This document shows positions 43,509 to 46,972 of a stretch of 64,000 nucleotides of DNA, in pieces. Position numbers and translations under genes: made by a program. How positions within the stretch are numbered: the first letter of the stretch is position 1; each line of letters opens with the position of its first letter. Under the pieces are notes generated by a model. It did not search any database. It had not been told where the DNA came from and was given only the letters and a program-made list of their open reading frames with translations. The stretch lies in the NCBI RefSeq assembly GCF_003334765.1, contig NZ_QOWT01000001.1. One strand, given 5' to 3'. This stretch comes from Escherichia coli (GTDB lineage: Bacteria; Pseudomonadota; Gammaproteobacteria; Enterobacterales; Enterobacteriaceae).

Positions 43509-46500
43509 ATGATTCCACAGATTTCCCAGGCACCCGGCGTCGTTCAACTGGTGCTTAATTTTTTGCAAGAGCTGGAGCAACAAGGTTTTACCGGCGATAC
43601 GGCGACAAGTTATGCCGATCGTCTGACAATGTCGACCGACAACAGTATTTACCAACTTCTCCCCGATGCGGTGGTATTTCCGCGTTCAACCGCAGATGTG
43701 GCGCTGATCGCCCGTCTTGCCGCGCAGGAACGCTATTCATCGCTGATCTTTACCCCCCGCGGCGGCGGCACCGGCACTAACGGTCAGGCGCTCAACCAGG
43801 GGATTATTGTTGATATGTCCCGCCATATGAACCGCATCATCGAAATTAACCCTGAAGAGGGCTGGGTGCGCGTTGAGGCCGGGGTGATAAAAGATCAACT
43901 CAATCAGTACCTGAAACCGTTCGGCTACTTTTTTGCGCCGGAACTTTCGACCAGCAACCGGGCAACGCTCGGTGGGATGATCAATACCGATGCATCCGGT
44001 CAGGGATCGCTGGTCTATGGCAAAACGTCAGATCACGTACTTGGCGTACGCGCGGTGTTGTTGGGGGGCGATATTCTCGATACGCAACCTTTACCCGTCG
44101 AATTGGCGGAAACGCTGGGTAAATCCAATACCACAATCGGGCGAATTTATAACACGGTTTATCAACGTTGCCGTCAGCAACGCCAGTTAATTATCGACAA
44201 CTTCCCCAAACTTAACCGCTTTCTTACCGGTTACGATCTGCGTCATGTCTTTAACGATGAGATGACCGAGTTCGACCTGACGCGCATTCTGACGGGTTCA
44301 GAAGGGACGCTGGCCTTTATTACCGAAGCGCGGCTGGATATTACACGCTTGCCTAAAGTGCGCCGTCTGGTGAACGTCAAATATGACTCTTTTGACTCTG
44401 CGCTGCGTAACGCGCCGTTTATGGTTGAGGCGCGGGCGCTTTCGGTAGAGACGGTGGACTCAAAAGTGCTGAATCTGGCGCGGGAAGATATTGTCTGGCA
44501 TTCCGTCAGCGAGTTGATTACCGATGTGCCTGACCAAGAGATGCTCGGGCTGAACATTGTGGAATTTGCTGGTGATGATGAGGCGCTGATTGATGAGCGG
44601 GTAAATGCACTCTGTGCGCGGTTGGATGAGCTGATCGCCAGTCATCAAGCAGGTGTCATCGGCTGGCAGGTGTGCCGTGAGCTGGCGGGGGTTGAACGTA
44701 TCTATGCAATGCGCAAAAAAGCCGTTGGTCTGCTTGGCAATGCCAAAGGTGCCGCTAAGCCAATTCCGTTTGCTGAGGATACCTGCGTACCGCCGGAACA
44801 CCTGGCGGATTATATTGCTGAATTTCGCGCGCTGCTCGACAGCCACGGCTTAAGCTACGGTATGTTCGGTCACGTCGACGCAGGTGTCTTGCACGTCCGT
44901 CCAGCGCTGGATATGTGCGATCCTCAACAAGAGATTTTGATGAAGCAAATCTCTGATGACGTGGTGGCGCTGACTGCGAAATACGGTGGTTTGTTGTGGG
45001 GCGAGCACGGCAAAGGTTTTCGCGCTGAATACAGCCCGGCGTTTTTCGGTGAGGAACTTTTTGCAGAACTGCGCAAAGTGAAAGCGGCATTTGACCCGCA
45101 TAACCGACTCAACCCAGGGAAGATTTGCCCGCCAGAAGGTCTCGATGCGCCGATGATGAAAGTGGACGCGGTGAAGCGCGGTACATTCGATCGGCAGATC
45201 CCCATTGCGGTACGCCAGCAGTGGCGCGGTGCGATGGAGTGTAACGGCAACGGTTTATGCTTCAACTTTGATGCCCGTAGTCCGATGTGTCCGTCGATGA
45301 AGATCACCCAGAACCGGATTCATTCACCGAAAGGGCGCGCAACGCTGGTGCGTGAATGGCTGCGTTTGTTGGCGGATCGCGGCGTTGATCCACTCAAACT
45401 GGAACAAGAACTGCCTGAATCCGGCGTCAGTTTGCGGACGTTAATTGCCCGCACGCGCAATAGCTGGCATGCGAATAAAGGCGAATATGACTTCTCACAC
45501 GAAGTCAAAGAGGCGATGTCGGGCTGTCTGGCCTGTAAAGCGTGTTCGACCCAGTGCCCCATCAAAATTGATGTGCCGGAGTTTCGCTCTCGTTTTCTGC
45601 AGCTCTATCACACCCGTTATTTACGCCCGCTGCGCGACCACCTCGTCGCTACGGTCGAGAGCTACGCGCCGCTGATGGCACGCGCGCCGAAAACCTTTAA
45701 CTTCTTCATTAACCAGCCGCTGGTGCGCAAACTCTCGGAAAAACATATCGGCATGGTTGATTTGCCGCTGCTGTCGGTCCCCTCGCTACAACAACAAATG
45801 GTGGGGCATCGCTCGGCAAACATGACGCTGGAACAGCTTGAATCTCTCAATGCAGAGCAGAAAGCGCGCACAGTGTTGGTGGTGCAGGACCCCTTTACCA
45901 GCTATTACGATGCGCAAGTGGTGGCGGATTTTGTCCGTCTGGTCGAAAAATTAGGTTTCCAGCCTGTGTTACTGCCATTTTCGCCAAATGGCAAAGCCCA
46001 GCATATTAAAGGTTTTCTTAATCGTTTTGCGAAGACGGCGAAAAAGACGGCGGATTTCCTCAACCGTATGGCGAAGCTGGGTATGCCAATGGTGGGCGTC
46101 GATCCGGCGCTGGTACTTTGTTATCGCGATGAATATAAACTGGCGCTGGGCGAGGAGCGTGGCGAGTTTAACGTCTTACTGGCGAATGAATGGCTGGCAA
46201 GCGCACTTGAGTCACAGCCAGTGGCTACAGTCAGCGGTGAATCATGGTATTTCTTTGGTCACTGTACCGAAGTTACCGCCTTGCCGGGTGCGCCAGCACA
46301 ATGGGCCGCGATATTTGCCCATTTTGGCGCGAAACTGGAAAATGTCAGCGTGGGTTGCTGCGGCATGGCAGGGACTTACGGACATGAAGCGAAAAACCAT
46401 GAAAATTCGCTCGGGATCTATGAGTTATCCTGGCATCAGGCTATGCAGCGACTGCCGCGTAACCGCTGTCTGGCGACCGGATATTCCTGCCGTAGCCAGG

Positions 46501-46565
46501 TAAAACGGGTTGAAGGCACGGGGGTACGCCATCCTGTGCAGGCTTTACTGGAGATTATTAAATGA
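43509..46565 (+). CDS. ydiJ: Large FAD-linked oxidoreductase with C-terminal Fe-S / CCG domains
   Basis: 1018-aa ORF; N-terminal FAD-binding TPRGGGTGTNGQ motif; Cys clusters CLACKACSTQCP. Confidence 0.93.
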   Translation: MIPQISQAPGVVQLVLNFLQELEQQGFTGDTATSYADRLTMSTDNSIYQLLPDAVVFPRSTADVALIARLAAQERYSSLIFTPRGGGTGTNGQALNQGIIVDMSRHMNRIIEINPEEGWVRVEAGVIKDQLNQYLKPFGYFFAPELSTSNRATLGGMINTDASGQGSLVYGKTSDHVLGVRAVLLGGDILDTQPLPVELAETLGKSNTTIGRIYNTVYQRCRQQRQLIIDNFPKLNRFLTGYDLRHVFNDEMTEFDLTRILTGSEGTLAFITEARLDITRLPKVRRLVNVKYDSFDSALRNAPFMVEARALSVETVDSKVLNLAREDIVWHSVSELITDVPDQEMLGLNIVEFAGDDEALIDERVNALCARLDELIASHQAGVIGWQVCRELAGVERIYAMRKKAVGLLGNAKGAAKPIPFAEDTCVPPEHLADYIAEFRALLDSHGLSYGMFGHVDAGVLHVRPALDMCDPQQEILMKQISDDVVALTAKYGGLLWGEHGKGFRAEYSPAFFGEELFAELRKVKAAFDPHNRLNPGKICPPEGLDAPMMKVDAVKRGTFDRQIPIAVRQQWRGAMECNGNGLCFNFDARSPMCPSMKITQNRIHSPKGRATLVREWLRLLADRGVDPLKLEQELPESGVSLRTLIARTRNSWHANKGEYDFSHEVKEAMSGCLACKACSTQCPIKIDVPEFRSRFLQLYHTRYLRPLRDHLVATVESYAPLMARAPKTFNFFINQPLVRKLSEKHIGMVDLPLLSVPSLQQQMVGHRSANMTLEQLESLNAEQKARTVLVVQDPFTSYYDAQVVADFVRLVEKLGFQPVLLPFSPNGKAQHIKGFLNRFAKTAKKTADFLNRMAKLGMPMVGVDPALVLCYRDEYKLALGEERGEFNVLLANEWLASALESQPVATVSGESWYFFGHCTEVTALPGAPAQWAAIFAHFGAKLENVSVGCCGMAGTYGHEAKNHENSLGIYELSWHQAMQRLPRNRCLATGYSCRSQVKRVEGTGVRHPVQALLEIIK

Positions 46566-46972
46566 TATGGAAACGGAAAATCACCCTGGAAGCACTGAAT
46601 GCTATGGGTGAAGGAAACATGGTGGGGTTCCTGGATATTCGCTTTGAACATATTGGTGATGACACCCTTGAAGCGACAATGCCAGTAGACTCGCGGACAA
46701 AGCAGCCTTTCGGGTTGCTGCATGGAGGAGCATCCGTGGTACTGGCCGAAAGTATCGGTTCCGTTGCCGGTTATTTATGTACCGAAGGTGAGCAAAAAGT
46801 GGTTGGTCTGGAAATCAATGCTAACCACGTCCGCTCGGCACGAGAAGGGCGGGTGCGCGGCGTATGCAAACCGTTGCATCTCGGTTCGCGTCACCAGGTC
46901 TGGCAGATTGAAATCTTCGATGAGAAAGGGCGTTTGTGCTGTTCGTCACGATTGACGACCGCCATTTTGTGA
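46562..46972 (+). CDS. menI: 1,4-dihydroxy-2-naphthoyl-CoA hydrolase (hotdog thioesterase)
   Basis: 136-aa ORF; ATGA overlap with ydiJ stop. Confidence 0.92.
   Translation: MIWKRKITLEALNAMGEGNMVGFLDIRFEHIGDDTLEATMPVDSRTKQPFGLLHGGASVVLAESIGSVAGYLCTEGEQKVVGLEINANHVRSAREGRVRGVCKPLHLGSRHQVWQIEIFDEKGRLCCSSRLTTAIL

Follow-up and report, generated by a model that had tools for sequence, protein, structure and literature searches.

Why is the gene for a large oxidoreductase that carries flavin and iron-sulfur (Fe-S) clusters directly followed, stop codon on start codon, by the gene for a thioesterase of menaquinone synthesis? The question is raised by ydiJ and menI, two adjacent genes in a 64,000-nucleotide stretch of Escherichia coli DNA (contig NZ_QOWT01000001.1 of assembly GCF_003334765.1); this whole stretch is called the window hereafter. 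An earlier reading made from the letters alone (the sequence-only reading) had remarked that the functional relationship of the two products is not obvious. This is still true: the literature searched for a link between ydiJ and menI, or between ydiJ and menaquinone, names them together only in lists of genes or promoters, and none of it discusses such a link. The answer that we consider probable is that the two genes form one inherited operon, with menI placed behind the promoter of ydiJ, and that they are co-expressed with no direct biochemical dependence between their products.

Both genes lie on the plus strand. ydiJ extends from 43509 to 46565 (ATG start, 1018 amino acids), as supported by the list of open reading frames (ORFs), the NCBIfam model NF049975, RefSeq annotation and published enzymology and knockouts. 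menI extends from 46562 to 46972 (ATG start, 136 amino acids), as supported by the same list, Pfam 4HBT, NCBIfam NF007631 and the YdiI structures. Read directly, the 3' end of ydiJ is ...ATT AAA TGA with the menI start codon inside it, the menI ATG (46562-46564) and the ydiJ TGA (46563-46565) sharing the ATGA at 46562-46565. Junctions of this 4-nt ATGA type are very frequent in operons. A Shine-Dalgarno-like GGAG for menI can be read at 46550-46553 (plus strand), within Leu-Glu codons of ydiJ and 8 nt from the menI ATG. The 1018-amino-acid ORF and its overlap had been located exactly by the sequence-only reading, and its gene names are borne out by the NCBIfam equivalog cut-offs, which both proteins exceed (1728 vs 1350 bits for YdiJ and 312 vs 226 bits for MenI). 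An ORF of 1018 amino acids with such domain scores is far beyond chance.

The segment is nothing other than the known and characterised ydiJ-menI operon of E. coli ('ydiJI'). Several E. coli genomes matched the 4-kb region with 100% identity, 5421 of 5426 complete genomes covered it, and the RefSeq names at matching E. coli loci are ydiJ, menI and ydiH. Gene order was as in strain K-12: rprA, ydiK (opposite strand), ydiJ, menI, ydiH, rydB and sufABCDSE. The K-12 pair (RefSeq WP_000613008.1 and WP_000637982.1; locus tags presumably b1687-b1686) is the same locus, and nothing of substance differs. MenI is identical in the two, and YdiJ has a single substitution relative to the K-12 record, with H938 here for R938 in K-12, owing to an A/G change at 46321; this column is variable across the family (H in 15, R in 14, A in 12 and K in 6 of 56 sequences). 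The reason for the linkage of ydiJ and menI is the sole unexplained point of an otherwise textbook annotation.

The conservation of the adjacency was assayed in 79 genome loci with YdiJ homologues (37-96% identity), which were searched for MenI, YdiH, YdiK, SufA and SufB. In 19 loci (18 clear cases and one weak), a MenI homologue was encoded downstream of ydiJ in the same orientation. All 13 Enterobacterales loci sampled besides E. coli displayed this arrangement, ten of them with the ATGA overlap, and the last YdiJ residue varied (K, G, P, E or Q). The other Enterobacterales junctions were a TAATG in Acerihabitans, a 1-nt gap in a metagenome-assembled genome (MAG) and a 15-nt spacer in Rahnella. 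Across the Enterobacterales, the loci had either GGAG or GGAA at the Shine-Dalgarno position. In Pasteurellaceae, menI was downstream in three of four loci, with spacers of 13 nt, 63 nt and about 800 nt, the longest of which holds a DUF559 gene; a Haemophilus MenI homologue was also encoded after ydiJ. Single cases were recorded in Psychromonas (11-nt spacer), Aeromonas (614-nt spacer) and a gammaproteobacterial MAG (weak match, spacer of about 520 nt). Matches to ydiK, ydiH, sufA and sufB near the pair were confined to Enterobacterales loci.

Elsewhere the pairing was not observed. No hotdog protein was encoded next to ydiJ in the remaining sampled loci, which include Vibrionaceae, Shewanella, Pseudoalteromonas, Colwellia, Idiomarina, Pseudomonas, Halomonas, Marinobacterium, Methylobacterium, Rhizobium, Gluconobacter and Vogesella. 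The alpha- and betaproteobacteria in the sample had no menI after ydiJ, three contigs with more distant YdiJ homologues had no thioesterase, and the neighbourhood of ydiJ held no other men gene in the 79 loci. More divergent hotdog genes were also considered for the place after ydiJ and rejected: in Vibrio, Shewanella, Glaciecola, Marinobacterium and other loci, the small ORFs there were ICMT-like, RraA or members of two families without a match.

On this comparative evidence, a single historical origin of the pair would be more likely than a selected functional module, with no convergent re-invention. The 19 menI-bearing loci among the 79 all belong to one gammaproteobacterial group. Unrelated small genes occupy the same position elsewhere (ICMT-like in Vibrio, RraA in Marinobacterium). 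Moreover, the junction is eroded in several lineages, as seen from the 11-63 nt spacers, the DUF559 insertion and the 614-nt gap in Aeromonas. Pseudomonas has ubiquinone only and no menaquinone. The YdiJ homologue PP4493 works in Pseudomonas (PMC12297413), which also favours the inherited-operon reading.

The following sequence of events would account for these data. The pairing would go back to a single event in an ancestor common to Enterobacterales, Pasteurellaceae, Aeromonas and Psychromonas, and would have been eroded or lost later in some descendants. Both genes would be transcribed from a single promoter upstream of ydiJ, and ribosomes terminating on ydiJ, or free ones, would start menI at the ATGA with the help of the GGAG. 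The pairing would be kept since menI depends on the promoter of ydiJ: without a promoter of its own, menI would therefore stay behind ydiJ. On the enzymatic side, the N-terminal GlcD-like FAD domain of E. coli YdiJ is known to oxidise D-2-hydroxyglutarate (D-2-HG), a by-product of SerA in serine synthesis, back to 2-oxoglutarate. The electrons would then leave through the fused GlpC-like Fe-S half, with its ferredoxin-type cluster or clusters and one CCG-type site, probably to a membrane quinone.

Several small genes were encountered where menI might have been expected or close by. In Rodentibacter rarus (L035:7269-7706), the gene inserted between ydiJ and menI, which are about 800 nt apart, is DUF559 endonuclease-like. 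In Vibrio (loci L010, L013, L026, L044 and L071, at about 7030-7600), ydiJ is followed by the gene for a membrane protein of 153-175 amino acids, weakly like isoprenylcysteine/lipid A methyltransferases; a 1-nt overlap between its predicted start and the ydiJ stop was seen in L013 and L026. In Nitrincola, Marinobacterium and Amphritea (L032, L041, L043 and L069), an RraA-family gene follows ydiJ on the same strand. The RraA family was once mislabelled MenG, and some of its members are 4-hydroxy-4-methyl-2-oxoglutarate aldolases. On the other side of ydiJ, ppsA (PEP synthase) and ppsR were found at most 4 kb upstream in 18 loci (e.g. L004:254-2257 and L016:427-1236). This arrangement occurs in many Enterobacterales and Alteromonadales, the genes being about 15 kb away in E. 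coli K-12, and it looks like an older conserved synteny.

How menI is translated within the operon was considered separately. The sequence-only reading had called the two genes translationally coupled. This description is deduced from the ATGA overlap within the 'ydiJI' operon alone. The RNA around the junction was predicted to be mostly unpaired, with a minimum free energy of -26.3 kcal/mol where shuffled sequences averaged -24.3 (z -0.67), and masking of the menI start by RNA structure was discarded as unsupported. Because a GGAG precedes menI itself and the junction is predicted to be unstructured, independent initiation is also possible. Coupling of ydiJ and menI is thus plausible, not obligatory, as judged from the sequence.

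One rival explanation takes this independence further: there would be no real coupling, menI would be translated mainly through its own Shine-Dalgarno site, and the ATGA would persist as any change to it destroys a start or a stop codon. We regard this as possible, if somewhat doubtful. The GGAG and the predicted open junction are consistent with it, as are the relatives that manage with 11-63 nt spacers and AGGA or AAGGA sites of their own. Persistence of the ATGA is in any case partly self-enforcing, because any change destroys the start or the stop codon. Nevertheless, the overlap is kept in 10 of the 13 Enterobacterales loci in spite of the variable last YdiJ residue, and re-initiation at ATGA junctions is common.

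The putative home of the ydiJ-menI promoter is the divergent intergenic region between ydiK and ydiJ (43121-43508, no strand assigned), bounded by the end of ydiK at 43120 (minus strand) and the ydiJ start at 43509. The plus strand of 43121-43508 gave no consensus sigma-70 site. Consensus scans for promoters and terminators gave counts at chance, with recognisable sites limited to the published promoters of ydiH and sufA. At its 3' side the unit is delimited by a promoter-like TTGTCA-16-CATATT at 46975-47002 (plus strand), which was recovered by the consensus scan and serves ydiH; its hexamers are those given in PMC3946193. The same promoter catalogue treats 'ydiJI' as one operon, located upstream of ydiH, which has its own constitutive promoter (PMC3946193). 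Anaerobic control by FNR was also considered as a hint and was dropped, as no FNR-like site with 2 mismatches or fewer lies upstream of ydiJ; across the window, 49 FNR-type sites were observed for 39 expected, which is near chance.

Two further elements were noticed in the ydiK-ydiJ intergenic region. The stretch gttcaccccagtcacttactattgtaagctcctggagttcac at 43318-43400 may be in the 5' untranslated region of ydiJ or of ydiK; we take it to be much like the ERIC/IRU enterobacterial repeat at its core, where the primer sites ERIC1R and ERIC2 lie. About 50 nt upstream of the ydiJ start, at 43431-43461, CTTTCAG and CTGAAAG form a perfect 7-bp inverted repeat around a 17-nt spacer, which may be a leader hairpin or the site of a regulator.

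Identification of the second protein as MenI leaves little doubt. It matched Pfam 4HBT (E 1.9e-18), i.e. the hotdog fold, and scored 312.2 bits with NCBIfam NF007631 (cut-off 226), while the EntH model gave 197.1 bits, under its cut-off of 237. Crystallised YdiI chains (4K49, 1SBK and 1VH5) were matched over residues 1-136. Q48, H54, E63, V68 and H89 were present by direct reading; these are presumably the catalytic residues of YdiI. The label of menaquinone-pathway thioesterase, already given by the sequence-only reading, is therefore well founded, the NF007631 cut-off being passed and the YdiI structures matched. The paralogue EntH (YbdB) and the Haemophilus influenzae orthologue HI1161 share the MenI hotdog fold and are highly similar to it in sequence (E 6e-52 and 6e-44, respectively). 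EntH serves enterobactin synthesis and is encoded in the ent cluster. The E. coli enzyme has been shown to be a hotdog thioesterase that converts 1,4-dihydroxy-2-naphthoyl-CoA (DHNA-CoA) to DHNA in menaquinone synthesis, and the protein of the window is predicted by its sequence to do the same. YdiI is also reported to contribute to menaquinone levels, and MenI is described as fairly promiscuous and its overexpression as suppressing a cell-envelope defect.

The function of YdiJ has been settled by others. E. coli YdiJ was purified in 2022 (Samsonov et al.) as a homotetramer with a Km of 83 uM for D-2-HG and strict specificity, and ydiJ knockouts accumulate 4-25 g/L of D-2-HG (PMC9504171). As cited in that paper, YdiJ has been purified with FAD and a [4Fe-4S] cluster (PMC9504171). 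A biosensor study of 2025 confirmed that YdiJ is a D-2-HG dehydrogenase, and showed that loss of either the GlcD part or the GlpC part has the same effect as deletion of ydiJ, and that no D-2-HG accumulates after deletion of serA (PMC12297413). In the same study it was proposed, without a test, that the GlpC part allows direct use of quinone by YdiJ (PMC12297413). YdiJ has thus been shown to be an FAD- and Fe-S-dependent D-2-HG dehydrogenase, and the protein of the window is assigned this function by homology: it scored 1728.3 bits against NF049975, the D-2-HG dehydrogenase equivalog (cut-off 1350), with residues 1-1016 aligned on positions 1-1017 of the 1018-position profile. The guess of a 2-hydroxyacid-dehydrogenase-like enzyme made by the sequence-only reading has consequently gained a precise substrate (NF049975; PMC9504171, PMC12297413). 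Since this substrate was published in 2022, the screen of purified YdiJ against D-2-hydroxy acids proposed by that reading had already been done (PMC9504171).

Domain annotation by profile hidden Markov models, another check proposed there, recovered FAD_binding_4, FAD-oxidase_C and Fer4_8. FAD_binding_4 covers residues 52-192 (43662-44084, plus strand; Pfam E 7e-38) and includes the GGGTGTNGQ motif at residues 85-93. FAD-oxidase_C, the substrate/cap domain of 2-hydroxyacid dehydrogenases of the VAO/PCMH type, covers residues 281-539 (44349-45125, plus strand; Pfam E 3.3e-68). The N-terminal FAD-binding dehydrogenase domain that had been read from the sequence is thus present as these two profiles. 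In agreement, the PDB sequence matches of the N-terminal half were LctD, glycolate oxidase, LDHD and human D2HGDH.

The cap domain is followed by a ferredoxin-like Fe-S domain, Fer4_8, at residues 577-687 (45237-45569, plus strand; Pfam E 1.9e-5). It contains a classical motif, C673-x2-C676-x2-C679-x3-C683-P, and a partial one (C578, C584 and C594); all seven cysteines were invariant or present in 55 of 56 homologues. This segment gave a profile match to HdrC in the PDB (E 1e-3). Chemoproteomics has assigned C673 and C683 as Fe-S ligands of YdiJ, with an alignment to GlpC and GlcF. The '4Fe-4S-like' motifs noted by the sequence-only reading are therefore solid, resting on Fer4_8 and a full CxxCxxCxxxCP motif.

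The GlpC-like region overlaps this domain and extends over residues 664-1016 (45498-46556, plus strand). It is supported by the NCBIfam GlpC model, an AlphaFold model, Foldseek and conservation, and includes a fold of the HdrB/LutA/EtfD type. The NCBIfam GlpC model PRK11168 matched residues 664-1016 with E 1.2e-31 (model positions 51-398 of 401), at a score below the cut-off of that model (110 vs 278 bits). A PDB search with the single sequence of the C-terminal half gave nothing meaningful, and a profile gave only the HdrC-like ferredoxin part. Residues 539-1018 were modelled by AlphaFold from a 56-sequence alignment (pLDDT 92.8, pTM 0.90). Foldseek against the PDB with this model returned Mycobacterium smegmatis EtfD (9ojn, E 4e-6), LutA (E 1.8e-4) and three HdrB chains (E 3.7e-4 to 1.4e-3), all with a probability of 1.00. 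The C-terminal half of YdiJ is accordingly modelled with an HdrB-like fold, of the type of CCG-domain Fe-S proteins.

The CCG assignment itself, also made by the sequence-only reading, was confirmed at the level of motif and fold, as one degenerate repeat with a literal CCG at C950-C951-G952, and was not confirmed by Pfam. The CCG profile (PF02754) gave no match to E. coli YdiJ at E<=10; in 37 homologues it gave none at E<=0.001 and five at E<=0.1, the best being 0.018. Filing the C-terminus as a Pfam CCG domain was thus rejected, and it was therefore argued from fold evidence. The CCG signature is C-x(31-39)-CC-x(35-36)-C-x2-C and normally occurs twice per protein. YdiJ has one set resembling it, C919-x30-C950C951-x35-C987-x6-C994, in which C987 is not conserved; the cysteines of the first repeat are lost and only the second set is kept. 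H918, C919, C950, C951 and C994 were invariant in 56/56 homologues. Together with the seven ferredoxin-region cysteines they make up the 12 Cys/His ligand candidates present in at least 55 of 56 homologues (C578, C584, C594, C673, C676, C679, C683, H918, C919, C950, C951 and C994). An AlphaFold-based survey has predicted two 4Fe-4S sites and one 2Fe-2S site in YdiJ. The Fe-S anatomy of the protein holds nothing new relative to the literature.

Comparison with related systems clarifies what is particular to YdiJ. GlpC is part of the anaerobic, menaquinone-linked glycerol-3-phosphate dehydrogenase. GlpC (in GlpABC) and GlcF (in GlcDEF) are separate subunits, whereas YdiJ is a fusion; the published alignment of the three has one complete and one incomplete ferredoxin motif. 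The sequence identity of EtfD, HdrB/HdrC and LutA, its best structural matches, to the C-terminus is 12-17%. The single-domain D2HGDH enzymes (human, Pseudomonas stutzeri and Achromobacter) share the FAD_binding_4/FAD-oxidase_C fold and the substrate with YdiJ at 23-25% identity, but they are about half its length and lack the Fe-S/GlpC-like half. They pass electrons to the electron transfer flavoprotein (ETF), while YdiJ has built-in clusters (PMC12297413). Pseudomonas putida PP4493, by contrast, has the same GlcD plus GlpC architecture and the same substrate, at 51% identity (PMC12297413). The Pseudomonas loci sampled here (YdiJ homologues 50-52% identical) have no hotdog thioesterase downstream, and a LysR-type regulator lies nearby. 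Mycobacterial EtfD carries two cubane clusters, and a linear [3Fe-4S] and a noncubane [4Fe-4S] cluster in two CCG domains, and delivers electrons to menaquinone (PMC13083937). Unlike YdiJ, EtfD has a transmembrane/heme domain, and it is fed by ETF and not by a fused flavoenzyme (PMC13083937).

Several points weigh against explaining the pair by inheritance and co-expression only. Of the genes tested, ydiJ-menI was the only unit common to Enterobacterales, Pasteurellaceae, Aeromonas and Psychromonas, and conservation of this degree is commonly read as pointing to a functional link. Haemophilus, which has demethylmenaquinone only, retains the pair. The C-terminal half of YdiJ resembles modules that feed (mena)quinone, namely GlpC and EtfD. 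Furthermore, we infer the ydiJ-menI promoter and co-transcription from the sequence, and no promoter was found in the scan. Finally, the natural electron acceptor of YdiJ is only proposed in the literature (PMC12297413).

These points can be assembled into the main rival explanation of the link. YdiJ would be a D-2-HG:(demethyl)menaquinone oxidoreductase, co-translated with MenI so that the enzyme and its naphthoquinone are made together, above all to the benefit of serine synthesis under anaerobic conditions. We hold this to be unlikely; the more specific version, in which the coupling to MenI is a quinone-supply module keeping SerA-driven serine synthesis running without oxygen in Enterobacterales and Pasteurellaceae, appears distinctly improbable. 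Arguments for the quinone link are the GlpC-like half with a fold matching the cytoplasmic module of the menaquinone reductase EtfD, the persistence of the pair in four lineages when the tested flanks (ydiK, ydiH, sufA and sufB) are seen in Enterobacterales only, and its retention in Haemophilus. Vibrio and Shewanella make menaquinone, yet lack the pairing, and no independent hotdog thioesterase was found beside ydiJ outside one clade. YdiJ also lacks the membrane cytochrome b domain that holds the quinone site of EtfD and any hydrophobic segment (maximum Kyte-Doolittle average of 1.2 over 19 residues), no FNR-like site lies upstream of ydiJ, and orthologues work in bacteria whose only quinone is ubiquinone. 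The proposal of a quinone acceptor for YdiJ and PP4493, made by analogy with the Fe-S D-lactate dehydrogenase PP4737 (PMC12297413), again speaks for the link. Two distant YdiJ homologues (35-38% identity) were encoded head-to-head with a long-chain polyprenyl diphosphate synthase, a gene of quinone synthesis (L082:1823-2749 and L084:1855-2826). As a recurrent quinone-synthesis neighbour this gene was rejected, since two related contigs are too few to count. In both contigs a Ham1/RdgB-like gene follows the YdiJ homologue.

A third explanation would connect the two enzymes through 2-oxoglutarate, YdiJ regenerating the co-substrate of MenD or removing D-2-HG that could inhibit MenD. MenD condenses isochorismate with 2-oxoglutarate in the first committed step, which lends this idea pathway logic only. 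The flux to menaquinone is tiny relative to the cellular pool of 2-oxoglutarate, no other men gene lies near ydiJ in the 79 loci, and none of the literature searched connects YdiJ with MenI or menaquinone. Accumulation of D-2-HG in ydiJ knockouts, at grams per litre, is in line with the idea (PMC9504171), which nevertheless remains very improbable. A second MenI substrate, such as the CoA thioester of 2-hydroxyglutarate or a related dicarboxylate whose released acid YdiJ would oxidise, is hardly credible, as the characterised preference is for aromatic acyl-CoAs such as DHNA-CoA, SerA accounts for the D-2-HG of E. coli (PMC12297413), no CoA ligase or transferase is conserved beside the pair and the literature searched lends no support.

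The inherited operon therefore remains the probable explanation. As it stands, the pair is already known and matters little: both enzymes are characterised and the operon is annotated in thousands of genomes. If the link were the naphthoquinone pool, it would explain anaerobic recycling of the D-2-HG from serine synthesis, and the pair would join amino-acid biosynthesis with anaerobic respiration. Menaquinone synthesis would moreover gain a point of regulatory control, useful for engineering producers of D-2-HG or vitamin K2. Even so, a quinone link would be no conceptual surprise.

Other features of the window were recorded alongside the pair. ydiH (47072-47260, 62 amino acids) had no NCBIfam match and was found, among the 79 loci, only in Escherichia and Citrobacter. 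Rfam models located the small RNA RprA at 41715-41822 (minus strand, 118 bits), upstream of ydiK, and rydB at 47426-47486 (plus strand, 82 bits), between ydiH and sufA, as well as a Phe leader at 12918-13042 and STnc540 at 16883-17041. Near the 3' end of sufE, at 53282-53290, three tandem copies of ATTCGCGCA are present for two in K-12, an in-frame 9-nt expansion (Ile-Arg-Ala). Finally, a perfect FNR-type palindrome, TTGATAACGATCAA, with 0 mismatches, lies at 57512-57525, about 200 nt upstream of a ydhY-like ORF of 208 amino acids at 57726; the ydhY operon is presumably under FNR control.

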